Source: a phage
Sequence record: PV730299.1
Length of the DNA: 64,000 bases
Direction: 5' to 3' (one strand)
The notes beneath the pieces were generated by a model. It worked only from the letters and a program-made list of their open reading frames with translations, made no database searches and was not told the DNA's origin. The translations under genes were made by a program, and so were the position numbers. This document shows, one piece after another, positions 1-62,310 of the stretch (its first letter is position 1; every line of letters begins with the position of its first letter).

Positions 1-1821
1 AAGCTGCGCCTGCTCCAGCTGATGTTCGTCCTTGCTTACCGCACCAAGTCCAACTATGAGGACGGCCTGGGTACTGTGGCTCCGTGGCTGGCCATGTGCT
101 ACTATCGCCTGTACGAGAAGGGGATAGTACCTAAGATCCAGCGTGTATACGATGGTCCGACCGACTTTGAGGGTGCATACGTCATGGATGTGACACCAGG
201 AATCTACTTCTGGGTCTTCTCGGAAGATTTGAACTCCCTGTATCCTCACATCATTCAGCAGTACAACCTCGGTCCAGAGACTATCGTTGGCGACAAACAC
301 CAGCGCCGCGAGATTATTGAGGCTATGTGTGAAGAGCTGGCTGCTCAGATGAATAACATGGCAACGCCGATGCACAAACGTCGGTTGATGAAAGCCCTTC
401 ACGACAAGCTGTTGCGTGCGGTTGATGAACGCCTGCAGGTTGTTGATGAGTTGGTTGCCCTGGGTGAGTTCCACTTTGAAACCCTGCGCCGCTACAACGT
501 GTCGTTCACACCGAACGTTCAATTCTTCAGCAACGAGAAGATGTCGTTCCTGTCTGAAATCATGCGCGGTATCTACAGCGACCGTAAAGTAGAGAAGGCC
601 AAGGGGCTGAAGTACGAGCAGTGGGCTGGTTGGTGTAAAGAGATGTCGAAGGGCGACTTCCATCTTGAGTCTGCCATGAAGTCTCGCTACTATGACCCAG
701 AGTGGTATGAAGAGCACAAGAACATTGATCTTGATGCCCTGACCGAAGTGATGAAGAAGTGGGAAGACCTGGGCGTCGCTCAAGATACCCTTCAACAAGG
801 TCTGAAGATCTTGATGAACGCAGGTTATGGCGCGATCTCAAACGTCTGGTTCAAAGAGTACTTCAACCTCAACATTGCCGAAGCCATCACCACATCCGGT
901 CAGCTGATCAACAAGTGGAACAAGCGTTACACCGATGATTATCTGAACAAGCTGTGTGGTACAACAGGCCAGGACTTCGTCATCGCAGGGGATACCGACT
1001 CCAACTACATCTGCATTGAGCGTCTTGTCAAGCATTTGTGGCCTGATGTTACTGACCATCATGCTATGGTTGATAATATCGACCAATGGATCAAAGACAA
1101 CTACCAGCCGAAGACCAATGAGTGGGCACAGCTTCTGTGTAACACCATGAACGGATTTGAACAGCGCATGGTGTGGGAGCGTGAGGTCATTGCGTCAGCC
1201 GCTGTCTGGCGAGCCAAGAAGATGTATGCCATGGCCGTGTACGACAGTGAGGGTATCAAGTACGAGAAGCCGAAGATCAAGTTCAAAGGTCTGGAAGCCC
1301 GCAAGTCCACCACACCGGAATGGTGTCGTGAGCGTCTTGTCAAGTGCTATGAGAAGATCCTACTCGGCACCGAAGAGGAAGTGCAGACGCTCATCTCCCA
1401 GTACAAAGAGGAGTATATGAAACTCTCTGTAGACGATATCGCCAAGGCGTCAGGTGTGTCCGACATAGAGAAGTGTGTGGCTGCTGACGGATCGTTTATA
1501 TCTGGTGCTCATTTTGCTGCCAAGGCGTGTGTGGGCTACAACCGTCTGGTTGAGAAGAACGAAGATCTGGGTCTACCGATGATCGAGTCGGGTGATAAGG
1601 TACAGATGGTGTTGTTGAAGCCGGGCAACCCGTTTGGGCAGAACTACTTTGCATATCCTGAGTTCTTCCCCGAGGAGCTTGGTCTGGGCAAATGGGTGGA
1701 TTATCAGGCGGCCTTTGAGAAGTCCTTCATTGATCCGATTCAGTCTATCCTCGACGTGGTCGGCTGGTCACACAAGCGCCGTGTGAACCTTCTTGCCATG
1801 ATGCAAAAGAAGAAAGGTTGA
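1..1821 (+). CDS. 43: DNA polymerase, family B (T4 gp43-like), C-terminal part; 5' end lies upstream of the window
   Basis: Frame is open from base 1. Motif B-like KILMNAGYG and motif C VIAGDTDS seen in the translation; overall shape matches the palm/thumb region of T4-type polymerases. Confidence 0.88.
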   Translation, partial: KLRLLQLMFVLAYRTKSNYEDGLGTVAPWLAMCYYRLYEKGIVPKIQRVYDGPTDFEGAYVMDVTPGIYFWVFSEDLNSLYPHIIQQYNLGPETIVGDKHQRREIIEAMCEELAAQMNNMATPMHKRRLMKALHDKLLRAVDERLQVVDELVALGEFHFETLRRYNVSFTPNVQFFSNEKMSFLSEIMRGIYSDRKVEKAKGLKYEQWAGWCKEMSKGDFHLESAMKSRYYDPEWYEEHKNIDLDALTEVMKKWEDLGVAQDTLQQGLKILMNAGYGAISNVWFKEYFNLNIAEAITTSGQLINKWNKRYTDDYLNKLCGTTGQDFVIAGDTDSNYICIERLVKHLWPDVTDHHAMVDNIDQWIKDNYQPKTNEWAQLLCNTMNGFEQRMVWEREVIASAAVWRAKKMYAMAVYDSEGIKYEKPKIKFKGLEARKSTTPEWCRERLVKCYEKILLGTEEEVQTLISQYKEEYMKLSVDDIAKASGVSDIEKCVAADGSFISGAHFAAKACVGYNRLVEKNEDLGLPMIESGDKVQMVLLKPGNPFGQNYFAYPEFFPEELGLGKWVDYQAAFEKSFIDPIQSILDVVGWSHKRRVNLLAMMQKKKG

Positions 1822-1833
1822 TTCAATAAACCA

Positions 1834-1857
1834 AAGGGGGATATAATTCCCCCTGTT
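1834..1857 (+). terminator. stem-loop downstream of the polymerase gene (weak intrinsic terminator)
   Basis: AGGGGG / CCCCCT stem with AT-rich loop ATATAATT, preceded by TTCAATAAA; U-tract weak. Confidence 0.4.
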
Positions 1858-1883
1858 AACCCTTTGACAAACAGGTGATTGAA

Positions 1884-2225
1884 ATGAAACTCAATAAGAT
1901 TCTTCTGGTGTGCGCTCTGGCTTTCTCTACCACTGCGTGTTCCACCCTTCTGGACGTTGCTTCTACTGTAGACCTTGACGCGCCGACGTTCACCAATGAG
2001 CAGGCCGTGTCCAAGATGGAAGACACCATCAAGGCGCATGCAGCACTGGACAACACTACCCCAGGTCCGCTCCAAACTGTCTGCAACTATGACGATTCCA
2101 TCCAGGAAGACGAAACTTACCACTGCATCACCTACGTGAAGCAGGCCTCCGTCGTTCTGTATGCAGATTGTACCGAAGAACAGTGTGTTGCTACAGGCTA
2201 CGATAAAGTTGAGGAAGACAAATGA
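1884..2225 (+). CDS. putative lipoprotein / secreted small protein
   Basis: ATG at 1884 with AGGTGA 6 nt upstream (the track's 1875 start is GTG); N-terminal signal-like hydrophobic segment LLVCALAFSTTAC ending in Cys. Confidence 0.45.
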   Translation: MKLNKILLVCALAFSTTACSTLLDVASTVDLDAPTFTNEQAVSKMEDTIKAHAALDNTTPGPLQTVCNYDDSIQEDETYHCITYVKQASVVLYADCTEEQCVATGYDKVEEDK

Positions 2226-3001
2226 ACAACCTGGTTTGTATCTATGATATGAAATCAAAGGTCGGTGGCCTGTATCGCGTCCTCGTGGATGTTGACCTGA
2301 CGTTGGTCGACAGCCTCTCCCCTTGGGTGCAGTGGTTTAACGAAGAGAACATCGCCGCCGCTGCTATCGCTACGGGGGAACATAAGTCATACCAGTTCCA
2401 GCCGATTACCAAAGAGTGTTATATGTCCCATGCTGGCGACCTGGCTATTCTGATGCGTGAACGTGCGCATCCGGCGTGGCTATACCATGAAGTCCAATTG
2501 GGGATGCACAAACAACGTGTGCCAAGCGGTAACGATCCTATGGACTGGTGGCGTCGCCCTGACTTGTACGCCAAGATGAACCCACTTCCTGGTGCTTACG
2601 AGTTCCTGGTGAATCTGAAGAAGATTCTGCTCGAAGACTTTGACAATGTTGAATTCATCGCGGTGTCGAAGTGCGAGCCGGAACACGAGCGCAGCAAGCG
2701 TCAGTTTGTCTATGATAAGTTCCCTGGTATCTTCAACGGGTTTGTCAGCACCGACGAAAAGCATCTGCTGGCTGGCGATGTCCTGATTGATGACAATCCG
2801 AAGTATGTCGAGCCATGCGGTCTGAACAACATCTTTGTCATCTTTGTTCCTCAGGGCAATTATGAAAAACTGGATCTTTCGAATTCGGAAGACATGCTTT
2901 ATATTAAACCAGTAGAAGGCCAGAATCACTTCGACTTCCTGAACCGCAATATTGTTGAAGTGGTTAACCGCCTGATTAGTCATTATCAATACGTCCGATA
3001 G
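2222..3001 (+). CDS. HAD-superfamily phosphatase, 5'(3')-deoxyribonucleotidase-like
   Basis: HAD motif I-like VDVDLTLVD near the N-terminus and a C-terminal LIDDNP motif typical of the NT5C nucleotidase family; ATGA overlap with the upstream gene. Confidence 0.45.
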   Translation: MNNLVCIYDMKSKVGGLYRVLVDVDLTLVDSLSPWVQWFNEENIAAAAIATGEHKSYQFQPITKECYMSHAGDLAILMRERAHPAWLYHEVQLGMHKQRVPSGNDPMDWWRRPDLYAKMNPLPGAYEFLVNLKKILLEDFDNVEFIAVSKCEPEHERSKRQFVYDKFPGIFNGFVSTDEKHLLAGDVLIDDNPKYVEPCGLNNIFVIFVPQGNYEKLDLSNSEDMLYIKPVEGQNHFDFLNRNIVEVVNRLISHYQYVR

Positions 3002-3010
3002 GAGGACATC

Positions 3011-3316
3011 GTGCAAGAACAATCCAAGTTTGGGGAAACCCCAGACAAGCGTTCCGGTGATAGCGACATGGATAGCGTGATTAACCATGTGAACAACTTC
3101 ATTCGTCAGCAGGAGACTCCAACTCCTATCGGTGCAGCCAAGGCTCTTCATGATGTACTGGTGAAGATCGGCCAGCGCTCTGAAGCGGATGAAATCTTCT
3201 ATAACTTTGAAGACCAGTATAAAGTGAAGTTTGAAGAAAACGGTCGTCCGCAGGTTGCTGTGTTCTGGGCACCTTGGCTGGGCGGCGTGAGCTGGCGTAT
3301 TGAGGATGCTGTGTAA
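3011..3316 (+). CDS. hypothetical protein
   Basis: GTG start preceded by AGGAGG at 2999-3004; stop overlaps the next start (ATGCTG). Confidence 0.5.
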   Translation: MQEQSKFGETPDKRSGDSDMDSVINHVNNFIRQQETPTPIGAAKALHDVLVKIGQRSEADEIFYNFEDQYKVKFEENGRPQVAVFWAPWLGGVSWRIEDAV

Positions 3317-4002
3317 TGCTGTCGCTCTACCTGATCACGAATCTCGTCAATCATAAATTCTATATCGGTGTCACCTCAGAACCGGATAGGCGGTTGGCTG
3401 AGCATAAGTGTGGTCAGGGGAGCATTGCATTACAACGAGCGTTCAAGAAATACGGTGAAGACCAGTTCAAGTTTGAAGTTCTGTTCCGAGGGAAAGATTC
3501 GGTTATCCTTGAGATAGAGTCTGAACTGGTCTGCCAGGAGATCCTTGACTCTGGGTGGTGCTACAACATGGTCGTCGGGGGTGGGAAGCCTCCATTGGCC
3601 ACGCCAGAGTCATCCGCAAAGAGCGCCGCAACCCGCAAACGTTTGATCGCTGAAGGTAAGATTAAACCTCCACCAAGACTCACCCCTGAAGCACAAGCCA
3701 GAAAGGGTAAGATCATAAGCAAATTGATGTCAGAAGGGAAGATCCCCAAACCACCAAGACCTTCCTCTGAATCTCAAACGCGTGGAGGGGGAACTAGGAA
3801 GAGGCTGCATGCTCTTGGTCTGATAGACATTGGTCCTGGTCGCGATGAAAAGATTTACAAATGGCAGCACAAAGATGGTCGCATCGTTGAGTTAAGAAGA
3901 TGCGACATGGAACTTCAATATGGCCTCCCTTCCGGTAATATAACGAATCTCTTGAAAGGTAGGGCTAAAACATGTCTCGGTTGGAGAATATTAAATGGCT
4001 AA
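3316..4002 (+). CDS. GIY-YIG homing endonuclease
   Basis: N-terminal LYLITNLVNHKFYIGVT (GIY...YIG signature) followed by two basic repeats GKIKPPPRLTPEAQARKGK / GKIPKPPRPSSESQTRGGG resembling NUMOD-type DNA-binding repeats. Confidence 0.75.
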   Translation: MLSLYLITNLVNHKFYIGVTSEPDRRLAEHKCGQGSIALQRAFKKYGEDQFKFEVLFRGKDSVILEIESELVCQEILDSGWCYNMVVGGGKPPLATPESSAKSAATRKRLIAEGKIKPPPRLTPEAQARKGKIISKLMSEGKIPKPPRPSSESQTRGGGTRKRLHALGLIDIGPGRDEKIYKWQHKDGRIVELRRCDMELQYGLPSGNITNLLKGRAKTCLGWRILNG

Positions 4003-4912
4003 AATAATTGTAGTGAAAGGCACCTCGGCCACGGGCAAGGGTACGAGAGTGGTCCAGTTCATCGAATGGCTGCGCACTAAGCTGGAGCCTACCGAACTGA
4101 CCTACACCGTTGGTGACAAGACTCGCCCGTTTGGCCTGAAGTTCGGAGAGCTGAAGTTAATCTTCGTTGGGCAGTACACCGTGTCTAACAAATCCGGTCT
4201 GGCTTCCTGGACTTCAATGGATGCAATCCATGCTGCTACAGGCTCAGGCGATATTGCTCGTGATCTAATCAAGTGCTGGTTGGTTCAGGGATACACTCTG
4301 GTGTGTGAGGGCGAACCTCTCATGCTATCGGACAAATGGCGTCCTGAATGGATGTTCAAGAACTATCCGATTGAATCATTGGCGCTGCTGTACTTTGCGT
4401 ACCCCGACCGCTATCAGTACGATGCTCGTATCCGTGGTCGATCTGGTAAAGAAGCAGGGAACTCCGGCTGGTCGCGCAACGAATCTTACTACAAGGAGTT
4501 TGAGAAGTCGAAGGCCGAAATGCTGGCGCTGGGCTTCACTGTGGCTGTTGATGATTACAGCGGACAGGATATCCTGTATAAATCACCGGATGCCAACACC
4601 AAGGAGTTCACAACCAAACAGCAGTCTGAGTTGGCGGTACTACCGTTCGACGCCCCGCTGTGGGTTGTGGGTAATGCGATTTGTCATCAGATCCGCTCTG
4701 AACTGCGTGGTGTTGACATGCACACCAAAGACTTCTACGCCTACTGTGAAACCAATCCGATGACTCGTGAAATCGGCGGCCAGGATCCTTTGGCGCACAG
4801 AGTCCCTGAGAAGCCGCAGAAGGCATCCAAAACTAAAACCAAGGCGAGCGCCCAGCCAGAAGCACCGAAGGCAGCGTCGCGCTCTCTCCTTGACCTGATG
4901 AAGAAGGGGTGA
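3995..4912 (+). CDS. P-loop NTPase, kinase-like; function unassigned
   Basis: Walker A-like GTSATGKGT at residues 9-17 and a Walker B-like LVCEGE; 305 aa. No match recognised to T4 Pnk, Tk or gp1. Confidence 0.5.
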   Translation: MAKIIVVKGTSATGKGTRVVQFIEWLRTKLEPTELTYTVGDKTRPFGLKFGELKLIFVGQYTVSNKSGLASWTSMDAIHAATGSGDIARDLIKCWLVQGYTLVCEGEPLMLSDKWRPEWMFKNYPIESLALLYFAYPDRYQYDARIRGRSGKEAGNSGWSRNESYYKEFEKSKAEMLALGFTVAVDDYSGQDILYKSPDANTKEFTTKQQSELAVLPFDAPLWVVGNAICHQIRSELRGVDMHTKDFYAYCETNPMTREIGGQDPLAHRVPEKPQKASKTKTKASAQPEAPKAASRSLLDLMKKG

Positions 4913-5112
4913 TCATGAAACGGTTGTCTAATTATCTGTTGTTCATTGGTCTGGTTATGGCAGCCGTTTCAATGTGTACTGCCCTAGCCTATCATTTCAC
5001 CCCTCTGGACTTAACAACCTCAGAGAAGTTGAACGTGACTGTGATGTACTGTATTGGCGCGGTGATGTCTATCGGCGCTGCTGGTTACAAAATATTCAAG
5101 GAACCAAAATGA
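4909..5112 (+). CDS. small membrane protein
   Basis: Two hydrophobic helices (LLFIGLVMAAVSMC and MYCIGAVMSIGAAGY); ATGA overlaps with neighbours on both sides. Confidence 0.45.
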   Translation: MIMKRLSNYLLFIGLVMAAVSMCTALAYHFTPLDLTTSEKLNVTVMYCIGAVMSIGAAGYKIFKEPK

Positions 5113-5489
5113 AAATTCAAATCCCTCGCGATGCTGTGGCTGTTGCGATCGACTACACCGGAAACGCCAAGCACATTACTGCCGTGCGCCTGATTCCTGA
5201 AAAGAACTGCGTCATCCCTCAGTTCCAACTGAATGCCAATCCGTCGTCCAAAGACTTTGGCAAGTGGTTGCAGGCTGCTCCGTTCCGTACCCAGACGAAC
5301 GCTCAGATGTTCATCTCGAGTAAGACCCACACCGCAGCCCGTCTGTGGTTCGTGACCGCTGACCGTCGCTTTGTCGATATGTGGGAACGTCCGATGGGGT
5401 TCGTGAAGCCGGAAGATATTCAGCTGGCTCCTGAGCCTGAAGCTGTGGCTCCTGAAGAGGAAGCGAAAGATGAAAATCAAGCAGGTTGA
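5109..5489 (+). CDS. hypothetical protein
   Basis: In-frame ATG at 5109 overlapping the upstream stop (ATGA); the track's longer ORF from 4974 would overlap the upstream gene. Confidence 0.5.
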   Translation: MKIQIPRDAVAVAIDYTGNAKHITAVRLIPEKNCVIPQFQLNANPSSKDFGKWLQAAPFRTQTNAQMFISSKTHTAARLWFVTADRRFVDMWERPMGFVKPEDIQLAPEPEAVAPEEEAKDENQAG

Positions 5490-5655
5490 TTTTATCTTCA
5501 TGATGTTGATGTTCGTTATCTTTACGGTTTCGCTGGTCGGCGTCATGGTCACAGAAGGAGTGCAACAGCGCCCATTCTTGGTGATATGTCCTGTATCTAT
5601 CGCCACTTTCTTCTATCTGGCGTTCCGTGTTGAACTCGGGAGTAAAATCGGATGA
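5470..5655 (+). CDS. small membrane protein
   Basis: 61 aa with two predicted transmembrane segments; overlaps the downstream start by 4 nt. Confidence 0.4.
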   Translation: MKIKQVDFIFMMLMFVIFTVSLVGVMVTEGVQQRPFLVICPVSIATFFYLAFRVELGSKIG

Positions 5656-6887
5656 CACATCTGTCTAAAATGCCGCAGGGATATAAAGCCCCTGAAAAAT
5701 GGAAATACCCGATTGATCTGGCAATAGATTATCGTAAGCCAGAAAATCGCATGTACCTACTCAAGGCTTGGGTGGAGGCGCTGTCCTACACCGAAGAGCA
5801 CAACCAGCAGATGCGTCTGATGGACTATGCGATCGAAGTCACTGAAGGTATCAGCCTCGAACAGAAAGTCGAGCGCAAGATCTGGATGGCATTCCTGTGG
5901 GGTTGTTGCTATAACGCCGTCGGGCCGTGGACGATCTACAGTGAGTTCCCTGTACCACCCCAGTCCAAAGAAGGGATGCAGCGCTTCTCTGATTGGTATA
6001 ATCTGAACTTTGATCGCATGCGATTCGATACCGACTGTCGCTACCGCAAGTCCAAGATGATTCCGTGTGTTCAGTCCTATATTGACTGGCTGGCTGGCCG
6101 TACTCAATATGACGCTTTCCGTGGGATGTTGGTGTGCATCGATAAGACAGAACAATTCACCCAGCTGTGGGACACGGCGATGTCCTGGAAATACTTCGGT
6201 CGCCTGAGCGCCTGGAACTTCCTGGAAGCCCTGAACATGGTCTTCGGGAACGAATACACCATTGACGTCCCTGGCTTCATGCTGCGTGATCGTGATGGAA
6301 GCGAGTCCAACCGTAATGGCGCGGCGTTCTTGTCCAACCGTGACGATTGGGTGACTAAACACGGGAAGAAAAAGATCAACGGTTGTCCTATCACGGATGA
6401 AGAGTGTGACATCCTTGAGGCCGACCTTGAGCAGGCGTTCCAGGATTGTGTGGCTGAGTTCGGGCACCTGACGTTCATCAACCGCCTGAACTTTGAAACC
6501 TCCGGCGCTTGTTGGCTGAAGAAATTCTTCCGACTGAAGAATACCCGTTACATCGGGTGGGACGCAGAGCGTACCTGGGATGAGATAGACTACATGGAAC
6601 GCGTCTGGCCTGAATACTCCTGCGCAGAGCTCTGGGAAGCCCGTTCGCTCTGGCTGCCAGATACCCTGTTATGTGAAAAGGCTCCTGCAGGGCACGTTCC
6701 AGGCGTCCAGAAGTGGAAGATGCCTGTATTCTTTGAGACTGGTGTTCCTCTGCATATCTGGCACCTGCAAAAGGGTACGCGCTGGGAACCATCCGAGGTA
6801 TGTACGAACCTGAAGATGCCTGTGCGCAAGGTTGAGGACAAGTCGAAGTCCAGCAGCGTCAACCTCATGGCACTCTTGAAACGCTGA
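5652..6887 (+). CDS. hypothetical protein (411 aa), function unassigned
   Basis: Long uninterrupted ORF, translationally coupled to the upstream gene; no motif recognised. Confidence 0.65.
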   Translation: MTHLSKMPQGYKAPEKWKYPIDLAIDYRKPENRMYLLKAWVEALSYTEEHNQQMRLMDYAIEVTEGISLEQKVERKIWMAFLWGCCYNAVGPWTIYSEFPVPPQSKEGMQRFSDWYNLNFDRMRFDTDCRYRKSKMIPCVQSYIDWLAGRTQYDAFRGMLVCIDKTEQFTQLWDTAMSWKYFGRLSAWNFLEALNMVFGNEYTIDVPGFMLRDRDGSESNRNGAAFLSNRDDWVTKHGKKKINGCPITDEECDILEADLEQAFQDCVAEFGHLTFINRLNFETSGACWLKKFFRLKNTRYIGWDAERTWDEIDYMERVWPEYSCAELWEARSLWLPDTLLCEKAPAGHVPGVQKWKMPVFFETGVPLHIWHLQKGTRWEPSEVCTNLKMPVRKVEDKSKSSSVNLMALLKR

Positions 6888-6894
6888 TATAAAT

Positions 6895-6917
6895 ATCCTC
6901 GCCTATAAAGCGAGGAT
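6895..6917 (+). terminator. stem-loop after the 411-aa ORF
   Basis: ATCCTCGC / GCGAGGAT 8-bp stem with loop CTATAAA, followed by ATTATC; overlaps a TATAAATA motif at 6888-6895. Confidence 0.3.
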
Positions 6918-6923
6918 ATTATC

Positions 6924-7091
6924 ATGTTACAAGATCTGCTGGTTTATGCGCTTCCTGGCGCGGTTGTCGGCTTCATTGCTGGTGCTCTGGTCTTCCGTAA
7001 ACACGCGCAAGATGGTGAAGTGATTGTTCAGAAAGGCAAAGAGATTCTGGACCAGATCGAAGCCAAACTGGAAGAGCTGAAGAAAAAGTAA
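6924..7091 (+). CDS. small membrane protein (55 aa)
   Basis: Below the ORF-track size cut-off; ATG at 6924, single hydrophobic helix LVYALPGAVVGFIAGALVF, followed directly by a strong intrinsic terminator. Confidence 0.4.
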   Translation: MLQDLLVYALPGAVVGFIAGALVFRKHAQDGEVIVQKGKEILDQIEAKLEELKKK

Positions 7092-7117
7092 TCTGACTGG
7101 GGTTGCTTCCTTCAATA

Positions 7118-7158
7118 AAGGGGAATGGGTTATTATTAGCCCATTCCCCTTTCTTTTT
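7118..7158 (+). terminator. rho-independent terminator
   Basis: AAGGGGAATGGG / CCCATTCCCCTT stem, loop TTATTATTAG, then TCTTTTT; preceded by TTCAATAAA. Confidence 0.7.
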
Positions 7159-7259
7159 GCAAGAATATACATCATGGCAATGCAACGAATTGAAGATATG
7201 TCTCTACTCAACATGGAAGCGACTTTTGGCGCTTCCGTTATCGTCATGGGAGAATCCAA

Positions 7260-7478
7260 ATGATCAAGAACACCCGAACAATGAAGCGCGCAATCGCTCA
7301 CTGTGTCCATTCAGTGGCAACTATTATGTTCCGCCACCACATCACATTTGATGAAGCACTGGACCCACAGTACCATGAAGAGCGTTGGGATTTGTTGTTA
7401 AAGAACGGCGCCAATCCTGAGCATAAAGATCAACTCCTTGGTATGACCAAGGCGCAGCTCGTCGGTGAATCCAAATGA
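7260..7478 (+). CDS. hypothetical protein
   Basis: 72-aa ORF coupled by ATGA to the downstream membrane protein gene. Confidence 0.4.
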   Translation: MIKNTRTMKRAIAHCVHSVATIMFRHHITFDEALDPQYHEERWDLLLKNGANPEHKDQLLGMTKAQLVGESK

Positions 7479-8590
7479 TCTACCTCCTGTTTGGTGTGCC
7501 ATTGGTACTGGCTATCCTGTTTGTGACCTACCACCGCAAGACCCATGAGCCGAAAGAGACTCTGATAGCGACCGCGATTGTAGTGGTGCTATCCTGTCTG
7601 ATTCAGGCGGGGACTTATGCTGCGTTCTCCCTTGGTAGTTCAGGGGATGTTGAGATCCTGAACGGGTACGTCACTGCAAAGGAGCGGAATGAGGTGAGCT
7701 GTGAGCATTCATATGAATGCAACTGTTACTACACCACATCTTGTACAGGTTCAGGAAATAACCGATCTTGTACACAAACGCGTCATTGCAGCACATGCTA
7801 TGAGCATTCATATGACGTGGACTGGGATGTGTTGACGACTGTCGGTAATCTGACGATTGACCGCATTGATCGTCGCGGCCTTGGTCAGCCCCCGCGCTGG
7901 GCGCAGGTTCAGATCGGCGAACCCGCAGCCCGTGAGCATTCCTACATGAACTATGTGCTGGGTAACAAGGACTCTCTGTTCTCTCGCTCGGACCAGCAGT
8001 TTGCTGAGCGCTTCAAAGACAAGATTCCGAAGTATCCCGAAGTCTATGACTACTATCGCGTCACTCGTGTACTGAATGTGTCTGGTCTGGCGTTACCGAC
8101 CACATACTGGAACGACTATCTGAACAATACTCTGAAAACATTAGGCGCTTCACGTCAGGTCAATATCGTCTGGGTTGTGACTTCCGGTCAGCCAGTTGAA
8201 TACTTCCAGGGCTTGGTCTATGCTTGGGATGGTGGTAAAAAGAACGACGTTATCGTCGTGACCGACATCAACAAAGACCTGAAGATCAACTGGGGTAAGA
8301 GCACTTCGTTCGCTGATGGTATGCATAACCGTGAACTCCACTCTCGCAATGGCATGGCTCTCACAGGCCACGACATGGGTGTCGGTGTCATGGCTGATGT
8401 TGTCGCTAACATCACCAAAGGCTACAACCGCGTTGAGATGAAGGAAATGGAGTACCTGAAGTGGCGGGAACTCAAGACCTGGGAAGTTGTGATTGTTGTT
8501 CTGCTAGGCTGTCTACCGTTCACCGCAATTTTCATATTACAGCGAATGGAGTACAATGGTGGCCGTCGTCGTTATCCGTTTAATTTTTAA
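7475..8590 (+). CDS. Cys-rich membrane protein
   Basis: Two N-terminal and one C-terminal hydrophobic helices; Cys-rich segment CEHSYECNCYYTTSCTGSGNNRSCTQTRHCSTCYEHSY in the predicted external domain. Confidence 0.55.
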   Translation: MIYLLFGVPLVLAILFVTYHRKTHEPKETLIATAIVVVLSCLIQAGTYAAFSLGSSGDVEILNGYVTAKERNEVSCEHSYECNCYYTTSCTGSGNNRSCTQTRHCSTCYEHSYDVDWDVLTTVGNLTIDRIDRRGLGQPPRWAQVQIGEPAAREHSYMNYVLGNKDSLFSRSDQQFAERFKDKIPKYPEVYDYYRVTRVLNVSGLALPTTYWNDYLNNTLKTLGASRQVNIVWVVTSGQPVEYFQGLVYAWDGGKKNDVIVVTDINKDLKINWGKSTSFADGMHNRELHSRNGMALTGHDMGVGVMADVVANITKGYNRVEMKEMEYLKWRELKTWEVVIVVLLGCLPFTAIFILQRMEYNGGRRRYPFNF

Positions 8591-8608
8591 TCAAAAGAGG
8601 AAGTAAGA

Positions 8609-9178
8609 ATGTCTCAATCTAAGGGTATCGCAACAGGTTGGATAGTTGGTTTGGCTTTGCTGGGTATAATGATTCTCGGCATCGGTACAGTCATCAGCTA
8701 CTTCAACGACTTCAACCGCACTGAGCAGCAGGTCAAGAAGTTCAACAAAGACTCCGAGAACTACCTGAGCAACTACACGCTCAAAGTTCAGGAGACGGCG
8801 CAGATTCCTGACATGTATAAAGACGGCCTGAAGGAAGTGATCAAAGGCACGTTCGAAGGGCGTTATGGCGCTGATGGTTCCAAGGCCGTCATGCAGTGGA
8901 TCCAGGAGCAGAATATTCAGTTCGATTCCAGCCTGTACAAAGAGATCCAGGTGGTGATCAGTTCTGGGCGTGATGAATTCCGCATCAGCCAGACCAAGAA
9001 GCTGGATATCTGCACAATATACGAAACTAAGCTGGCTCAGTTCCCTGGTTCGTTGATTGCTGGCATGTTCGGCTACCCGCGTATCGACCTTGACAAGACC
9101 TGTCAGGTGGTGAGTGATACCCGTACCCAGGCCGCGTTCGACGCTGGTATTCAGAAACCGATTAACTTCAAAGGCTGA
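8609..9178 (+). CDS. LemA-family protein
   Basis: N-terminal transmembrane helix and the C-terminal signature FPGSLIAGMFGYPRI ... QKPINF characteristic of LemA proteins. Confidence 0.65.
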   Translation: MSQSKGIATGWIVGLALLGIMILGIGTVISYFNDFNRTEQQVKKFNKDSENYLSNYTLKVQETAQIPDMYKDGLKEVIKGTFEGRYGADGSKAVMQWIQEQNIQFDSSLYKEIQVVISSGRDEFRISQTKKLDICTIYETKLAQFPGSLIAGMFGYPRIDLDKTCQVVSDTRTQAAFDAGIQKPINFKG

Positions 9179-9182
9179 TGTC

Positions 9183-9596
9183 ATGAGCGTGAAACTCACT
9201 GAATCCCTGACACTGGACCAACAGCAGGCTTTGTTGGATGAGGTAGTGATCTCTGCTATCAAGCAAGGGATTATCAAAGACGACTTGTTGATTGACCGTC
9301 CCGAGATGATCCATCATCTGGTGGTGTGCCTGGGTGAGGCCAGCAACCCTCGCAAGAAGATCGTGCTGTTTACTGATGGTGTGATCCTTCCGAGCGGGAA
9401 ATGTGCGTTCTTGGATGTGGTTGAACATCCGAACACGAAAGGCAAAGAGGTCAAGACTTCTGTTCCGGTGACTCCATACACCGAGGGTGTTGACCATCTG
9501 TCTTGGTTTGAGACAATCAACACCATTTATGTGATGACACCGGACGGTAAACCAGTTCGGGATCTACGAGGCGGCAAAGTAGAATCTGAAGACTAA
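9183..9596 (+). CDS. hypothetical protein
   Basis: ATG at 9183 just after the LemA stop (the track's longer ORF from 9114 overlaps LemA); followed by an intrinsic terminator. Confidence 0.5.
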   Translation: MSVKLTESLTLDQQQALLDEVVISAIKQGIIKDDLLIDRPEMIHHLVVCLGEASNPRKKIVLFTDGVILPSGKCAFLDVVEHPNTKGKEVKTSVPVTPYTEGVDHLSWFETINTIYVMTPDGKPVRDLRGGKVESED

Positions 9597-9610
9597 TCGT
9601 TCTTCAATAA

Positions 9611-9646
9611 AAGGGGATAGGGTATTATTGCTCTATCCCTTTTTCG
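9611..9646 (+). terminator. rho-independent terminator
   Basis: GGGGATAGGG / CTCTATCCCT stem (two G-U pairs), loop TATTATTG, then TTTTT; preceded by TTCAATAAA. Confidence 0.65.
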
Positions 9647-9707
9647 TGGACAGGAACATGACAGACAAGCCAAGAAAGATGAAGAACAAACACCGGAGCA
9701 AACGCTG

Positions 9708-10163
9708 ATGACTACCAAACCAACTTATGAAGAACTGGCGCAGACCGTTCTGACCTTTGACAGCACCCTGAAGAATCTTTACAAGGTGCTGGGAAATAAC
9801 CCGACTTCAGAGTCAGGAGAAACAGTTAATCTTCTGTTACTGATGAACCCTCTGTGGGATATTGATGCCACTATTGCTGCCCTGAAAGATCCTGGGGCAC
9901 AGGAGCCGGAGCCAACCCCTGTATCCACTGGGATTCAGAAATACCTGGAGAACTTTGACGAGTACTCCTTCACAGATCTGCTCCTGCGTGATATGATCAA
10001 CACAGAACGCCGTCGCCAGGGGAAGAACTGTCCTGTGGTCCAGTCTGATGAAGAAATAGAGCAGAGTGTTCGGGAAGATCTGAACAGCACCTACTCGCCT
10101 ATCGATCTGGCTGTAATGATTGTTCAGGCGCTGTCCTACGCCGCCAAAGGAGAAACGAAATGA
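9708..10163 (+). CDS. hypothetical protein
   Basis: 151-aa ORF, acidic, ATGA-coupled to the downstream ORF. Confidence 0.5.
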   Translation: MTTKPTYEELAQTVLTFDSTLKNLYKVLGNNPTSESGETVNLLLLMNPLWDIDATIAALKDPGAQEPEPTPVSTGIQKYLENFDEYSFTDLLLRDMINTERRRQGKNCPVVQSDEEIEQSVREDLNSTYSPIDLAVMIVQALSYAAKGETK

Positions 10164-10852: not shown

Positions 10853-10866
10853 TCTGAACAAAGCCC

Positions 10867-10891
10867 TCAGTCGAGGGCTTTTTCAATTGAA
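10867..10891 (+). terminator. rho-independent terminator upstream of rIIA
   Basis: GCCCTC / GAGGGC stem, loop AGTC, then TTTTT. Confidence 0.7.
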
Positions 10892-10958
10892 GACACCCAC
10901 CGTATTATACCCACTCAACCAATATGTTCCCCTTTGACATTGATAGGATTTCTATACT

Positions 10959-13715
10959 ATGAAAATGCGCAAGTCCGAGCACTTTATCCGCTCGTCGTCT
11001 TCCATTCAGGGGCAGGCGTTCAACGTTAAAATGAACGATAAGATGTTTGAGACTCTGTTCTCATCATTGTATCGTTACAAAGAGGCTGCAGCCCTGCGCG
11101 AAACCGTCTGTAACGCCATCGACTCCCATGGCATGCGTGATCGTATGCACCGTGTGATGGCATCCCACTACGCGCCTCTCACTCCCCCTCCTGCCCGCCA
11201 CAGCAAATACCTTGCACCGAAGGGTAAGCAGGTTGTTGTGCATCTACCTGATGACTTTGAGCCATGGCTGGAAATCCGTGATTACGGCATCGGTCTGCCA
11301 CTTGAGAAGATCATTGGTGAGCCTATCCCAGCACAGGAAGATGAGGTGCTGCTGGAAGGCAACATGGTGGTCAAGGAAGATGAGATCCCTGACTCAGCTG
11401 AGGTCATCGGCGTGCCTGCGTTCTATAATGGTGGTCTAGTGTTCCGTCGCGAAGATGGTGAAATCATTCGTACGCCTGGGTTGTATACCACTCTCTTCCA
11501 CAGTACGAAGGAAGAAGATGATGATCAGATTGGGGCATTCGGTCTTGGCTCCAAATCACCATTTGCGGTATCGGATTCGTTCACTGTGGAAAGCCGCATG
11601 GACGGTAAACTCCATCGCTTCCTGATGTACCTGAATGCCAAGCGCATCCCGACTGTTGATCTGATCACCAAAGATCTTGAAACCCGTGATCCTAAGCCGG
11701 AAGACACCGATGAGTTCAACGGCATGACGGTGAAGATCCCGGTGAAGAACGCTCGCTTCTCCGCATTCTCCGATGAGCTGGTTCGCCTTGGTCGTGTTAT
11801 ACGCCCTGAACAACGTCCAATTGTTGAGAACGCTTCATACCGCTTCGGCTGGGAAGATATCAGTTATGAATTCAAGGTCAATAACACATACATCCAGCCG
11901 AAAGGCCAGGGGAACATCCATTATGCTGTAATGGGTGGCGTGTCGTACCCGATTGACCTGGACCAGCTGGACCCGGACACTGCTTCCATCATGAGCAAGT
12001 TTCCATCGTCCTATACGTTCTTCGAACTCGGCTCGCTGAACGTACCACCGTCGCGTGAAGACCTTTCATATGACGAATTCACGCGTGAGACGCTCTCTGA
12101 GGAGTTTAAGGGCACCGCCAATGCAATCTTGACAGAAAAGATGCGTGACCTGGAGCTGGCGTGTAAGCGTGGTCCTCTTGCCCTGTATATGGAGAAGGTA
12201 AAACTGAGTGAAATGTTCGGCAGTGGGTTCCGCAAGATGGTTGAAAAGGAATACCCGGCAGACAAGCGCTTTCATGATTCATATTACCGTTACCCGCTGC
12301 CTGTTGAGATCGACCGTGACTATGACCACACCGCGCCGTTCAATGAATTGTCATCGCCGTTCTCTATGGAGATCTTCTATGACTGGGGTGAGTCCAGTAA
12401 TTTGACCATTTCAGAAATCCAGAAGTGGATTGATCGCGGCCAGCATGTTACTGTGGTGATCGAAGATAGTGTTCGTGCTCGTAACCTGAAGATCAAGCAG
12501 CTGAAAGATACAGGGACGATAGTCATCGTGGCCAAGCCGAACACATCCTATGTCACCAAGCGCAACCAATCTAAGGACAACCCTGCGTTCAAGAATTCTC
12601 AGGCTCTCTATGATTTCTTTGAAACTTGGATTGGTAAAGAAGAAACGACGGTTGATTATCTGTGCTTCGCCGACAAGTTCGTCGATTGGCTGAGTGCGGT
12701 GTTGGAGCCTGCTGAAGTCAAGTTCATGAACGAACTGTCGTATGTCACGCCCCCGGTCACCAAAGACCCTGGCCTGTTTCCGTTCACGCGCAGCAACTTC
12801 GACATATACCAGTATGAAGAACTAACGGGCGACCAGATCTCAGATATCATCAACAAGGGCGAGCGCATCGTCTATATTGAGGTGTCTGGCCATGCGTGTA
12901 TCCATCAGGTGATGGACAGAACGTTGACGACTGCGGCGGCGCGGGGTATTCGTAAATCTCTGTATGAGCACGCAGTCAGTGTCGACGATGAAGGCAAGCC
13001 AGTGTACATCAGCGATATGTTGAACGTTCACAACCGAATCTTCTTGGCTCGTCGTAAATCCGTGCCAATGATGAAGAAGTTCCCAGAGGTCTTCATACCG
13101 ATCGATGAAATCCTGAAGATCATGTTGGAAAACGTGAAGCCTATGATGGAGCGCGATAGCGCCAGGCGCATACTGGAATCATACCGCCGCATGCGCCTTG
13201 GGGCGGATCGATTAAAATACGGGAGCCATCTGGTTCATCAGGCGTTTGGTGATGTTGAAGACGATCGTTATGGCAAATTGGTCAGCCGTTACAACAAGTT
13301 AATGAAAGTTGTGGACGATATCTTGGATGAGCAGACTGTACGTCATTACCAAAGCCTGGCGAAAGCCCCGGTTTCAATCAATGACAAGCGTCGATTTAGC
13401 CATTTCCAGGACACAATACATTCTCTTAACGTGAATTTGTACGCCAACGAGCGTGACGAAAAGATCTTCCGTTCAGAACATCAGATGCTACAGATCTTTG
13501 AATGCGCTTCGGATGTGTTGCGGTTTCATGGATTTACACCGTTTGATATATCGAGGACTCCGTCATTGAAAGCAAGGCGGGAAAACCGATTGACCATCGA
13601 GCGTCATCGTGTTGTCCGGTTCTTGAAAGAGAATTACAAACCAAGCGCCCTGAACCCGATTGAAAAATCTTCGGATTACTTGGACGTTATTTCAAATTCC
13701 ATTATCAGGGCATAA
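10959..13715 (+). CDS. rIIA: rIIA-like protein (GHKL-type ATPase fold, membrane-associated lysis-inhibition/exclusion protein)
   Basis: N-terminal FETLFSSLYRYKEAAALRETVCNAIDSHG and AFGLGSKSPFAVSDSFTV align from memory to T4 rIIA (FKILSSDLYTNK...MIDAH and GGFGLGSKSPFSYTDTF). Confidence 0.85.
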   Translation: MKMRKSEHFIRSSSSIQGQAFNVKMNDKMFETLFSSLYRYKEAAALRETVCNAIDSHGMRDRMHRVMASHYAPLTPPPARHSKYLAPKGKQVVVHLPDDFEPWLEIRDYGIGLPLEKIIGEPIPAQEDEVLLEGNMVVKEDEIPDSAEVIGVPAFYNGGLVFRREDGEIIRTPGLYTTLFHSTKEEDDDQIGAFGLGSKSPFAVSDSFTVESRMDGKLHRFLMYLNAKRIPTVDLITKDLETRDPKPEDTDEFNGMTVKIPVKNARFSAFSDELVRLGRVIRPEQRPIVENASYRFGWEDISYEFKVNNTYIQPKGQGNIHYAVMGGVSYPIDLDQLDPDTASIMSKFPSSYTFFELGSLNVPPSREDLSYDEFTRETLSEEFKGTANAILTEKMRDLELACKRGPLALYMEKVKLSEMFGSGFRKMVEKEYPADKRFHDSYYRYPLPVEIDRDYDHTAPFNELSSPFSMEIFYDWGESSNLTISEIQKWIDRGQHVTVVIEDSVRARNLKIKQLKDTGTIVIVAKPNTSYVTKRNQSKDNPAFKNSQALYDFFETWIGKEETTVDYLCFADKFVDWLSAVLEPAEVKFMNELSYVTPPVTKDPGLFPFTRSNFDIYQYEELTGDQISDIINKGERIVYIEVSGHACIHQVMDRTLTTAAARGIRKSLYEHAVSVDDEGKPVYISDMLNVHNRIFLARRKSVPMMKKFPEVFIPIDEILKIMLENVKPMMERDSARRILESYRRMRLGADRLKYGSHLVHQAFGDVEDDRYGKLVSRYNKLMKVVDDILDEQTVRHYQSLAKAPVSINDKRRFSHFQDTIHSLNVNLYANERDEKIFRSEHQMLQIFECASDVLRFHGFTPFDISRTPSLKARRENRLTIERHRVVRFLKENYKPSALNPIEKSSDYLDVISNSIIRA

Positions 13716-23321: not shown

Positions 23322-23732
23322 ATGAAATTACTGGGATATTTTCGTGAACTCCCAACGGGCACTGAAGGCAAGTTGTTCTCACAGGTGAAGGGGGATGACA
23401 TCGGTGATACGATGATTCCATTGTACACTCGTGAACTTCCTGCCGAAGGTGCCTGGGAGCGCCGTGTGGTCGCTGCCGCCAACAAATATGGTGACGTGAT
23501 CGTCGTTGCTGACCGTCACCACAGCCGATTCATGAACAGCCAGCTCAAGATCCTGAAAGAAGCAGGCGTCATTAAATCCATCCATACCCGCGAACAGGGC
23601 TTCATCGACAACCAGGGCAACTTCCTCACTCGTGAAGAGGCGTGCATCGTAGCCCGTGAAGCTGGACAGATTAATCAGGTGCGCCTGAAGACAACCCCTT
23701 TCCGAGAACTCTTTTCCGAAGACCTCTATTGA
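23322..23732 (+). CDS. hypothetical protein
   Basis: 136-aa ORF; stop followed by the hairpin at 23739-23758. Confidence 0.5.
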   Translation: MKLLGYFRELPTGTEGKLFSQVKGDDIGDTMIPLYTRELPAEGAWERRVVAAANKYGDVIVVADRHHSRFMNSQLKILKEAGVIKSIHTREQGFIDNQGNFLTREEACIVAREAGQINQVRLKTTPFRELFSEDLY

Positions 23733-23738
23733 AGAAAA

Positions 23739-23758
23739 AGGCGGTATTATTACCGCCT
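23739..23758. terminator. hairpin with flanking A-run and weak T-run (possible bidirectional terminator)
   Basis: AGGCGGTA / TACCGCCT stem, loop TTAT; A-run upstream on the plus strand gives a T-run in the reverse orientation. Confidence 0.35.
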
Positions 23759-27414: not shown

Positions 27415-27611
27415 AAATTTATTTTTCTGGACAAAAAGTGCCTTATAAAGTGCAGAAGGTCACAATCACAGGCTACCGGAAAGGGGATCCATATCTGCGC
27501 TTCTCCTCTCCATGTATCTTGAAGCAAACTAAAACGGGTTATTATATCAGGCCGATTGTGTTGATTATTGGTGTGCTTTCCGTTTTAGCTCTGAAAGGAG
27601 TATTGTCATGA
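27411..27611 (+). CDS. small membrane protein
   Basis: 66 aa with a C-terminal hydrophobic helix; overlaps both neighbours. Confidence 0.4.
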
Positions 27612-27946
27612 AAAAGCCGCGTATTACAGGACACCAACTCTTGGTTCTCTACGGGATAGAGAACTTTGAGAAAGGTCATTACCGTTATGGTGAATGGTAC
27701 TTGCATCCCAAATCCTGGACCAATGACAAGGGCAACACCGTCTGGACGTTCCAGGTATGCCCGAACACTGGTGGTTTCACCTCCGTCAAAGGCGACCCAT
27801 GGGACACCCGCACAGGGGCTTCCCTGCTCGCCAAGGGGTTGATCGAACCAGCTGGCTCAATGGTTCATGACGGTTCTTACGTGAACTGGCCGAACACTGA
27901 GGTGACGTTCTATCGCCTGACCGAACTCGGTAAATCTTATCTCTGA
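27608..27946 (+). CDS. hypothetical protein
   Basis: 112-aa ORF followed by tandem hairpins/terminator at 27943-27998. Confidence 0.5.
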   Translation: MKKPRITGHQLLVLYGIENFEKGHYRYGEWYLHPKSWTNDKGNTVWTFQVCPNTGGFTSVKGDPWDTRTGASLLAKGLIEPAGSMVHDGSYVNWPNTEVTFYRLTELGKSYL

Positions 27947-27972
27947 ATAAAGATTCAGCGGTTATTGAAGAA

Positions 27973-27998
27973 GGGGGAGTATATACTTCCCTTCGTTT
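27973..27998 (+). terminator. rho-independent terminator (second of two tandem hairpins)
   Basis: GGGAGTA / TACTTCC stem then TTCGTTT; preceded by the short hairpin CTGAAT-AAAG-ATTCAG at 27943-27958. Confidence 0.55.
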
Positions 27999-28015
27999 AT
28001 TAAGAGGAACCGGAA

Positions 28016-30080: not shown

Positions 30081-30130
30081 AATCTAGTCCTAAATAGCCA
30101 TAACACTCTATCTATTTAAGGGCTGAGACC

Positions 30131-37807: not shown

Positions 37808-37844
37808 CTCCAGGGTTATATGTGCTGCTATTATAACCCTGGAG
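37808..37844 (-). promoter_or_regulatory. 13-bp perfect stem-loop sequestering the DNA ligase Shine-Dalgarno
   Basis: CTCCAGGGTTATA / TATAACCCTGGAG with an 11-nt loop; the minus-strand GGAG 8 nt before the ligase ATG lies inside the stem. Confidence 0.4.
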
Positions 37845-37923
37845 ACTTCAATATATTATCAGGGAACGAATCTCAGCACTCAGCGACGGTATACAGAACA
37901 ACCAGTTGATAAACTTTATCATG

Positions 37924-40234: not shown

Positions 40235-40298
40235 GATGTGCTCCTAGTTTACATTCAGATCATAGAATTATACCCTATGACCCGCTTTATTGAATTGC

Positions 40299-46471: not shown

Positions 46472-46546
46472 AAACTGCTCCGATAAACAAAAGGAGCTGC
46501 TATTATAGCAGCCCCTTCATCTATTGAACAGTTTCTGAACTTAAAT

Positions 46547-47868: not shown

Positions 47869-48618
47869 TTATTTGGACAAGTAGAAGTTTGGAACTTCAG
47901 GGAAATACTCTGGTGGATATTCCCCTAGAACATCCTGTTTCACCTTCCCTTCGATATCTTCGCGGATACGACGAATCACTTCTTCCTGTTGTTCTGCTGC
48001 CATCACTTCTTCCATGGCTGAGTACAAGTTTTCTAGAATGACACCTACGTAGTTGTGGATGGCACGACAGGAGTTCTGATCATACTCCATATCCGGATGA
48101 ATCGCCAGGTCGACCTGATCACGCCCTACCAGCAGATGCCCAGACACCAGATTTATCGGGTATTTGAATACTTCACTAGATTTGACAGCAACTCCGTCGG
48201 CTTGCTTCAGCAGGAATTCGGTTTCAGAGAAGCGTTCAAGCAGTTCCGATGGGAATACCATATCGAGATTCTGACGCTTGCGACCAAAGAAGTACAGACA
48301 ATGCGCCAGTTTCAGGCATGCATCGGTGGCCATCTTCATGTGTGCTTTAGCGTGTTCATAACCAGCGATCACATCACGGACATAATCGTACAGGTCGGAA
48401 TGACCAAAACGGATGTCCTCTTCGAAGCGGATTGCTGTTTCACTGTCCGGTTTCACACCCAGAACATCGAAAATATTTTGTTCACGAACTGATCTTCCGT
48501 TTCGATCGAAACCCAGAACGCAACCGACTTCGAATCCACTCTTTTCAAAATTTGGGAGTTTCATATCAAGGCGAGCTGGGGTAAACTCTAACCCGAACAT
48601 ACGATAAATTTGTGACAT
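47869..48618 (-). CDS. hypothetical protein
   Basis: 249-aa ORF in the minus-strand train. Confidence 0.55.
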   Translation of the reverse strand: MSQIYRMFGLEFTPARLDMKLPNFEKSGFEVGCVLGFDRNGRSVREQNIFDVLGVKPDSETAIRFEEDIRFGHSDLYDYVRDVIAGYEHAKAHMKMATDACLKLAHCLYFFGRKRQNLDMVFPSELLERFSETEFLLKQADGVAVKSSEVFKYPINLVSGHLLVGRDQVDLAIHPDMEYDQNSCRAIHNYVGVILENLYSAMEEVMAAEQQEEVIRRIREDIEGKVKQDVLGEYPPEYFPEVPNFYLSK

Positions 48619-48680
48619 GTTATAGCCTCATCATTTAGGATTACCTGTTCACGAATTATCCCTCGGAACGGGTTATAGAA

Positions 48681-51421: not shown

Positions 51422-51520
51422 TTCTTAATTTCCTCTGTTTCCGCCCCTCAGGGCTATTCTGTTACATGTATTTTCAGTTTGCTACAAAGCGGGGTAATTA
51501 TACCCCGATCTTACATTGAA

Positions 51521-58431: not shown

Positions 58432-58510
58432 GATATAGTTCCTGCTTTTAATTTGTGGCGAATGCCAATGAATTACTGGGAAGTATAAGCGCAGGGATTA
58501 TAGAAGTAAA

Positions 58511-62258: not shown

Positions 62259-62264
62259 ATTATA
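62259..62264 (-). promoter_or_regulatory. candidate -10 element (TATAAT) upstream of nrdA
   Basis: TATAAT on the minus strand about 32 nt upstream of the nrdA ATG with an intervening CGAGGAA RBS; -35 is poor. Confidence 0.25.
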
Positions 62265-62310
62265 CGCCACCCTCGTAGATTGAAGGCGGCGGGGAGGGTT
62301 GGCGAGTTAC

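Follow-up and report, generated by a model that had tools for sequence, protein, structure and literature searches.

Between genes of the 64,000-nucleotide (nt) stretch of phage DNA analysed here (sequence record PV730299.1; hereafter the window), a nine-base leader, TTCAATAAA, recurs beside stem-loops whose anatomy suggests that they probably combine an intrinsic terminator with an overlapping promoter that lacks a -35 element and consists instead of a box near -30 and a -10 hexamer, serving as stop-and-restart signals. An initial annotation of the same DNA had treated three of these stem-loops as a family of sequence-related terminators. The window represents an Agtrevirus-like (ViI-like) phage of the Ackermannviridae: its first 12 kb are 96.5% identical to Escherichia phage AV101 (Ackermannviridae, Aglimvirinae), and further matches of this region include Ag3, SKML-39, P46FS4 and other ViI-like phages. 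Genome-wide counts were made on the complete annotated AV101 genome (156,759 bp), with gene positions taken from its annotation; position 1 of the window corresponds to about AV101 position 7271. Orthologous sites were collected in IMG/VR from 23 related-phage loci of ~20 kb, each with the gene at window positions 5652-6887 at its centre.

Five modules in the window have a hairpin that straddles the -10 hexamer:

Module A, 1822-1854, plus strand: box TTCAATAAA at 1822-1830, an 11-nt spacer, and TATAAT at 1842-1847 at the hairpin apex.
Module B, 7111-7158, plus strand: box at 7111-7119, spacer GGGGAATGGGT, and TATTAT at 7131-7136.
Module C, 9603-9644, plus strand: box at 9603-9611, spacer AGGGGATAGGG, and TATTAT at 9623-9628.
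Module D, 40256-40294, minus strand: box TTCAATAAA at 40294-40286, a 13-nt spacer, and TATAAT at 40272-40267 at the apex.
Module F, 46483-46528, minus strand: box TTCAATAGA at 46528-46520, a 12-nt spacer, and TATAAT at 46507-46502 at the apex.

The leader reported ahead of the three plus-strand hairpins is present at all of them, as the 10-mer CTTCAATAAA at 7110-7119 (B) and 9602-9611 (C) and as aTTCAATAAA at 1821-1830 (A), where the first base is A instead of C. Module A comes directly after the DNA polymerase gene, whose stop codon occupies 1819-1821; four nucleotides (ccaa) separate its box from the stem AGGGGGA/TCCCCCT (1835-1854, loop TATAAT), the stem is followed by GTTAACC rather than by a T-run, and an ATG lies 42 nt downstream at 1884. 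In module B, the AAA of the box is already within the stem of a 16-bp hairpin (7117-7152, apex TTATTATTAG) with the arms GGGGAATGGG-ttattattag-CCCATTCCCC-TTT, which runs into CTTTTT at 7153-7158 ahead of an ATG at 7175. The 10-mer of module C continues as AGGGGATAG-ggtattattgct-CTATCCC-TTTTT, giving a hairpin at 9609-9644 with the apex TATTATT and a TTTTT end, and the downstream ATG at 9658 opens a short open reading frame (ORF) remnant. On the minus strand, to which the local genes also belong, the hairpin of module D (40284-40256) is followed by AATGTAA without a T-run and an ATG lies 38 nt downstream of the module, at 40234, while that of module F (about 46518-46490) is followed by TTTTGTTTAT, 36 nt upstream of the ATG at 46471. 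Modules C and D have ATAGGGTAT(T/A)AT...CTAT in common, and the stems of B and C, and of C and D, resemble each other; duplication is a possible origin of the modules.

A second small hairpin, CCTGTT-aaccctttgaca-AACAGG, stands directly after module A (window 1852-1875) and is conserved in related loci (CCCTTTGACAA). Its loop contains a perfect TTGACA, which is too near the ATG at 1884 to be the -35 element of that gene.

The leader is strongly enriched. With at most one mismatch, CTTCAATAAA occurs 16 times in the window against 3.7 expected, a number reached in 0 of 100 shuffles; exact TTCAATAA occurs 12 times against 1.7 expected; and the composite TTCAATAAA-N11-TATAAT, with at most two mismatches, occurs five times against 0.05 expected. 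Enrichment therefore extends well beyond the three instances first reported, and members on the minus strand are to be added. In AV101, where the box consensus across sites is TTCAATAA(A/C), 22 of 32 copies of TTCAATAA are intergenic although intergenic DNA makes up only 8.1% of the genome, and 18 of these 22 are oriented in the direction of the genes. An exact-pattern scan of IMG/VR for TTCAATAAA-N11-TATAAT gave, among the matches listed, single matches on unrelated contigs, and is uninformative on taxonomic spread.

The distance from the box to TATAAT or TATTAT is usually 11 nt, with a range of 10-13. When boxes with at most one mismatch were paired with -10-like hexamers across AV101, 3, 7, 1 and 2 sites were found at spacings of 10, 11, 12 and 13 nt, respectively, a peak of 13 sites against ~0.2 expected (about 0.05 per spacing). 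Such composite sites number 14 with at most one box mismatch and 22 with at most two, and every one precedes a same-strand annotated start, at 15-85 nt from the start codon and with the -10 typically 34-46 nt away. The genes served include tRNA-Asn, rIIA, nrdA and neighbours of the DNA polymerase and primase-helicase genes, and the site at AV101 154069 serves the first gene at a divergent junction; the structural-gene block is avoided by 21 of the 22. Several composite sites (AV101 463, 103767 and 154069) have no hairpin at all. Among ~126 intergenic gene-strand hairpins of AV101, 12 combine the box with a -10-like apex, 11 have such an apex but no box, 4 have the box on its own and 99 lack both; the association of the box with a -10-like apex has an odds ratio of 27 (p = 9e-8). 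Ordinary tetraloop terminators (TTCG, GAAA and similar) are without the box. The distance between box and stem varies from a 3-nt overlap to a 5-nt gap, whereas that between box and hexamer is fixed. The leader thus tracks a -10-like hexamer at fixed spacing and not a hairpin, and the description of these elements as a family of terminators is a misnomer: the leader keeps to the hexamer at N11, occurs at hairpin-free sites, and is missing from tetraloop terminators.

The same constraint is visible across related phages. At sites A, B and C, all of the 20-23 loci covering the region retain TTCAATAA(A/C), the 11-nt spacer and A2 and T6 of the hexamer, with the neighbouring protein 72-97% identical across them. 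The spacing exceptions are N12 at site B in locus L007 and N13 at site A in L023 and L024; orthologues of site A come from 21 loci, alongside this L023/L024 variant. The extraction filter itself demanded A2 and T6; zero loci were lost to it, so the invariance of these two positions is meaningful. The other hexamer positions tolerate change (TATTAT, TAATAT, AATAAT, TATATT, GATAAT, TATGAT and TATACT occur among orthologues), the 5' arm at site B may be GGGGAATGGG, GGGAATGGGC, GGGGTGCAGGC or TGGGGTTACAG, the stem at site A may be AGGGGGA, ACAGGGGGA, AAGTGGGG or GGGGGC, and the sequence just upstream of the box diverges. At site B, the predicted start base is a purine (A or G) in all orthologues, and the likely transcription start in the window is the conserved purine at 7143.

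Several insertions and deletions adjoin the modules. A small ORF of ~200 bp (MTPQYKILVTSRCYAYGQGE...) immediately follows module B in 10 related loci (e.g., L027 11516-11720) and is absent from the window, where the junction (7159-7175) falls in the ribosome-binding-site region. In L020, an insertion of ~300 bp (6716-7022) separates the end of the DNA polymerase gene from module A and reaches precisely to the 5' edge of the TTCAATAAC box. The changes beside modules A and B may reflect nothing more than an intergenic position. In both the window and AV101, only 16 codons remain of the gene after module C (window 9658-9708), an ORF of ~115 codons in relatives, through a deletion of ~290 bp flanked by two short direct repeats, GCCAAGAAAGAT and GCCAAGAAGAT (in comparison with L027 14210-14520, L015 and L019); this deletion lies inside a gene and is unrelated to the module.

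On the terminator side, the hairpins fold as sense RNA with energies of -14.1 (A), -26.9 (B), -23.5 (C), -14.2 (D) and -21.9 (F) kcal/mol, with z-scores of -1.9, -5.8 and -6.5 for A, B and C, respectively. A U-run follows the stem immediately at B, C and F and is absent at A and D, and the A-run of the box pairs with the U-run. Over 35 distinct orthologous hairpins, the mean folding energy is -21.2 kcal/mol in the sense and -14.8 kcal/mol in the antisense orientation, the sense strand is more stable in 31 of 35, and G·U pairs number 68 in sense against 7 in antisense. Each of these G·U pairs would be a mismatch in DNA and in antisense RNA, and selection therefore acts on the stems in the transcript arriving from upstream. 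With their sense-favoured stems and U-runs, modules B, C and F bear the signature of intrinsic terminators; among the three hairpins originally called terminators, that designation suits B and C, which have a proper T-run, and may not suit A, which has none. RNAalifold counted three compensatory pairs for the module B hairpins, a support that is limited because MAFFT misaligned the most divergent sequence; the sequences were therefore folded separately. In an ungapped alignment of module B, the stem register shifts by one column between lineages. An Rfam scan of the whole window matched no family. Two DNA-level structures were also considered and rejected: a cruciform, in view of the G·U asymmetry, and a DNA-hairpin promoter of the type used by the N4 virion RNA polymerase, for which the stems depend on G·U pairs that would be G·T or A·C mismatches in DNA.

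On the promoter side, the hexamers at the 22 AV101 sites all have A2 and T6, as the search filter demanded, and 20 of the 22 have T1; such sequence evidence favours the suggestion of a -10 role for the AT-rich loops. A -35 element resembling TTGACA, sought 16-18 bp upstream of these hexamers, was found at background level only, the best match averaging 2.7 of 6 positions against 2.5 of 6 for 681 background -10-like hexamers of AV101. The extended -10 motif TGn is rare (one site, AV101 463), and G at -14 is present in 14 of 22. If the conserved block is counted as TTCAAT, it is separated from the -10 by 14 bp, a spacing too short for contact by region 4 of sigma-70.

Initiation and termination at the modules are thus both inferred from sequence anatomy, and the proposed sequence of events can be outlined as follows. 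At the RNA level, a hairpin with a G-rich 5' arm, an AT-rich apex and a C-rich 3' arm, flanked by the A-run that ends the box and by the U-run, would terminate the upstream transcript, strongly at B, C and F, with A and D offering the hairpin only. At the DNA level, TTCAATAAA would act as an upstream promoter element centred near -28 (about -32 to -24), together with a sigma-70-type -10 at the apex. Transcription would start 6-8 nt past the hexamer, inside the 3' arm; the new transcript would therefore lack the 5' arm, form no hairpin and read into the next gene. The outcome would be a stop-and-restart punctuation between genes expressed before DNA replication.

Besides the five modules, the window contains further promoter regions and relatives in which box, hexamer and hairpin are arranged differently:

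rIIA promoter region, 10860-10908, plus strand: hairpin at 10860-10881, box TTCAATTGA at 10882-10890, a 12-nt spacer, and TATTAT at 10903-10908.
nrdA promoter region, 62259-62291, minus strand: box TTCAATCTA at 62284-62276, an 11-nt spacer, and TATAAT at 62264-62259.
Relative G, 23727-23758, plus strand: inverted box TATTGAAG at 23727-23734, 10 nt, and TATTAT at 23745-23750.
Relative H, 27963-28001, plus strand: inverted box TATTGAAG at 27963-27970, and TATACT at 27982-27987.
Relative I, upstream of the DNA ligase gene, 37808-37853, minus strand: inverted box TATTGAAG at 37853-37846, 10 nt, and TATAAT at 37835-37830.
Weaker relative upstream of the single-stranded DNA (ssDNA)-binding protein gene, 51485-51520, minus strand: TTCAATGTA, 9 nt, and TATAAT.
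Weaker class I candidate, 48655-48680, minus strand: TTCTATAAC, N11, and GATAAT; AV101 56600.

In the rIIA region, a plain terminator hairpin stands upstream, its T-run fused to the box, and the -10 has no hairpin of its own (ATG at 10959); this layout is kept in 20 related loci though the terminator stems differ. In the nrdA region, the hairpin CGCCGCC/GGTGGCG encloses the box and not the -10 (ATG at 62227). TATTAT of relative G is at the apex of the hairpin 23739-23758 (ATG at 23783), and TATAAT of relative I is inside a 13-bp hairpin at 37844-37808 (ATG at 37800). Relative H, whose hairpin (about 27970-27994) has the apex TATATACT and is followed by GTTTATT and by an ATG at 28016, accounts for the partial relative that had been noted at 27943-27998: it does belong to the family, with the box inverted. 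Just upstream of it, the gene at 27608-27946 has an inverted repeat, CTGAAT-AAAG-ATTCAG (27942-27957), overlapping its stop codon. At the ssDNA-binding protein site, TATAAT is at the apex of the hairpin CGGGGTA/TACCCCG (51507-51490), followed by CTTTG, and the gene at 47869-48618 has its ATG 42 nt downstream of the weaker class I candidate.

Promoter-like sequences of a second type, TTTACT-N15-17-TA(T/A)A(C/T)T, occur at 58510, 47480 and 39514 on the minus strand of the window and at 5166, 66448, 79360, 116754 and other positions in AV101. As a rule, a terminator hairpin immediately precedes these promoters and contributes the TTTAC through its T-run. Most copies also have TTCAATA(A) in the spacer or a little upstream; for TTCAATAA, placement in the spacer or closely ahead of the -35 applies to 7 of 9. 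Since the box is found in these promoters, at one terminator and in the inverted relatives as well, its distribution points to a general marker of promoter regions that are used before replication starts. It is an attractive idea that a single factor would activate from -30 and repress from within the spacer.

A third, late-promoter-like motif, (C/A)TAAATA(C/G)C, is present on the plus strand of the window at 30090, 55512 and 6889 and in AV101 at 3517, 143817, 146301 and 149885. In the window, it lies 41 nt upstream of two baseplate genes, a gp48-like gene at 30131 and a gp5-like gene at 55553. Several of the AV101 copies serve as the 5' arm of a long hairpin; the opposite 3' arm, GGGGTATTTA, extends right up to the start codon, so that the promoter-like sequence is repeated in inverted form at the ribosome-binding site. 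Reading the box itself as a T4 late promoter, or as an element with sigma-32-like spacing, was considered and rejected: the sequences mismatch, and the separate CTAAATA-type late motif is present.

The closest parallel is offered by the middle promoters of T4, in which a 9-bp MotA box located 12±1 bp from the -10 serves replication, nucleotide-metabolism and tRNA genes. Here, too, a 9-bp box takes the place of the -35, at 11 bp (10-13) from TAnnnT, and the same kinds of genes are involved (rIIA, nrdA, replication neighbours and a tRNA); the box sequences differ, being TTCAATAAA in this phage and (a/t)(a/t)(a/t)TGCTTtA in T4. Without a -35 and mostly without TGn, such promoters should be weak with the host polymerase alone, which favours a phage factor or a modified polymerase, and by analogy with T4 there is close to an even chance that the box is read in the middle-promoter manner by a phage-encoded activator or a modified RNA polymerase. 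A bolder proposal, which we regard as possible but distinctly less likely, is that TTCAATAAA is the site of an Ackermannviridae transcription factor that is unrelated in sequence to MotA and AsiA, replaces -35 recognition, and possibly shuts off the TTTACT-type early promoters.

The likeness to the promoter/stem-loop cassettes of T4-type phages (PeSL and PmSL) that had been suggested for these elements fits. Both are repeated composites of a stem-loop and a promoter, intergenic and located in non-structural (early/middle) gene blocks. Indels adjoin some of the modules described here, which may be due to their intergenic position alone. The published PeSL consensus is TTTACW-N17-TAYWAT, and the PmSLs of phage nt-1 have a -30 box and TATTAT (Arbiol 2010; Comeau 2014, PMC4122927). 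The copies of TTTACT-N17-TATACT that follow a hairpin in the present phage are true PeSL-like elements. In a PeSL, however, the stem-loop stands just upstream of the promoter, an arrangement found here only at rIIA and at the TTTACT-type promoters, whereas the stem-loop of modules A, B, C, D and F spans the -10, so that terminator and promoter occupy the same 40-50 bp; the box sequence also differs. Ordinary intrinsic terminators share with the modules a GC-rich hairpin with a U-run (B, C and F), an A-run pairing with the U-run, and stems optimised for the sense strand through G·U pairs. They differ in that the apex of the modules is a conserved -10-like hexamer and not a stable tetraloop, that a conserved 9-mer stands ahead, and that A and D have no U-run.

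A number of observations weigh against the combination of terminator and promoter proposed here. The hairpins of A and D may not terminate, because they have no U-run. The A2/T6 invariance among orthologues is partly preset by the filter and is meaningful solely because no locus dropped out. TTCAATAA also accompanies TTTACT-N17-TATACT promoters, either within their spacer or ahead of their -35, one copy stands directly ahead of a plain tetraloop terminator (AV101 79377), and the box is inverted, at 10-11 nt from the -10, in the three relatives G, H and I; it is thus not tied exclusively to the -30 position. The literature searched yielded no transcript 5' or 3' ends for any Ackermannviridae phage. 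Searches of all AV101 reading frames with T4 MotA and AsiA (phmmer --max and tblastn) gave no detectable homologue, the best phmmer E value being ~0.4 and the sole tblastn match (E 0.014) lying inside a topoisomerase gene, though structural analogues may exist, and no MotA or AsiA has been reported for ViI-like phages (Kutter et al.). A Pfam search for a box-binding candidate among 20 small proteins of the window returned domains of unknown function only. The gene at window 23322-23732 is annotated in AV101 as a homologue of Arn.3, and T4 arn.3 is located between asiA and motA; the small neighbours of the homologue match only DUF6527 and DUF7234, so this neighbourhood gave no lead to a MotA/AsiA analogue.

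The most serious competing explanation, to which we assign a minor but real share of probability, is that the sites are host-type early promoters that use sigma-70 only and overlap terminators, with the AT-rich box acting as a weak -35 or UP-like surrogate. Sites A and F were read as early promoters in the Ag3 genome paper, and near-consensus -10 hexamers, the G at -14 in 14 of 22 sites and the TGn at AV101 463 are as such promoters would have them. It is more difficult to reconcile with background-level -35 matches at 16-18 bp, with a TTCAAT block whose 14-bp distance from the -10 is outside the spacers sigma-70 is known to accept, and with a 9-mer kept at N11 across genera more strictly than a generic AT-rich tract would need. 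Moreover, the phage has a separate, canonical-looking class, TTTACT-N16/17-TATACT.

It is less probable still that TTCAATAA is simply an operator for a phage or host DNA-binding regulator (a repressor or a nucleoid-type protein) acting from several positions. The placement of the box in the spacer or upstream of the -35 at most TTTACT-type promoters, its inversion at G, H and I, and the near-palindromic TTATTGAATAA copies present in AV101 are what an operator would predict; the box also resembles TCGATAAATT, the reported high-affinity H-NS motif. The sharp, conserved N11 peak argues instead for a fixed RNA polymerase geometry at the main class. An operator role is partly compatible with a terminator-promoter overlap, as one factor could activate at -30 and repress in the spacer.

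Two further explanations are very improbable. Pure terminators related by duplication, whose leader is an inherited flank and whose loops have no promoter function, would account for the strong hairpins and U-runs of B, C and F, for the pairing of the box AAA with the U-run and for the similar B/C and C/D stems, but not for the box and hexamer at N10-13 in hairpin-free sites, the rIIA hairpin upstream of the box, the ~100 other intergenic hairpins, tetraloop terminators included, that have no box, the missing U-runs of A and D, or the persistence of A2/T6 and N11 while stems are replaced. An RNA-level signal in the 3' untranslated region, recognised by a processing nuclease or by a binding protein, agrees with the co-directional orientation of the box (18 of 22), and a single-stranded AU-rich stretch beside a stable stem is a typical context for RNase E; this reading, which revives the processing-factor site raised in the initial annotation, is a poor fit to a box at a divergent junction that has no upstream co-directional gene (AV101 154049), to a box ahead of a tRNA, to a box-to-stem distance (measured at the hairpin base) that varies while the box-to-hexamer distance is fixed, and to the lack of an Rfam match.

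Individual sites of the family have been annotated before. In the Ag3 genome paper (Table S2), site A appears as the early promoter Porf237 (read as TTGATT-N18-TATAAT) and site F as the promoter Porf067 (TTCAAT-N15-TATAAT) with the terminator Torf069, and terminators are listed at sites B (Torf248), G (Torf021) and H (Torf031), at the ssDNA-binding protein site (Torf075) and in the nrdA region (Torf095). The LIMEstone1 GenBank record has a terminator at site B and a terminator with a -10 signal at site C. In both phages, sites were annotated singly by a TTGACA-N15-18-TATAAT rule, with no description of the box, of its N11 spacing or of the overlap across the family. Kutter et al. (2011) reported that the early and middle promoters of CBA120 were not identifiable by informatics, and a 2024 review of the Ackermannviridae does not mention transcription. 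A literature search of incomplete coverage found no description of the box motif.

ViI-like phages are widely used for typing and biocontrol, yet their early and middle signals were reported as unidentifiable. The TTCAATAAA-N11-TAnnnT class provides ~22 sites per genome to test, conserved across the diverged lineages sampled, and the box can serve as bait for whatever factor recognises it. A -10 placed in the apex of the upstream terminator would be a very compact way of separating transcription units and might supply a synthetic stop-restart part, and in annotation the module sites should carry both terminator and promoter features. If a dedicated Ackermannviridae factor does recognise the box, it would represent a second, independently evolved switch resembling sigma appropriation, and would address the question, raised by Kutter et al. 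(2011), of how transcription is timed before replication in ViI-like phages.

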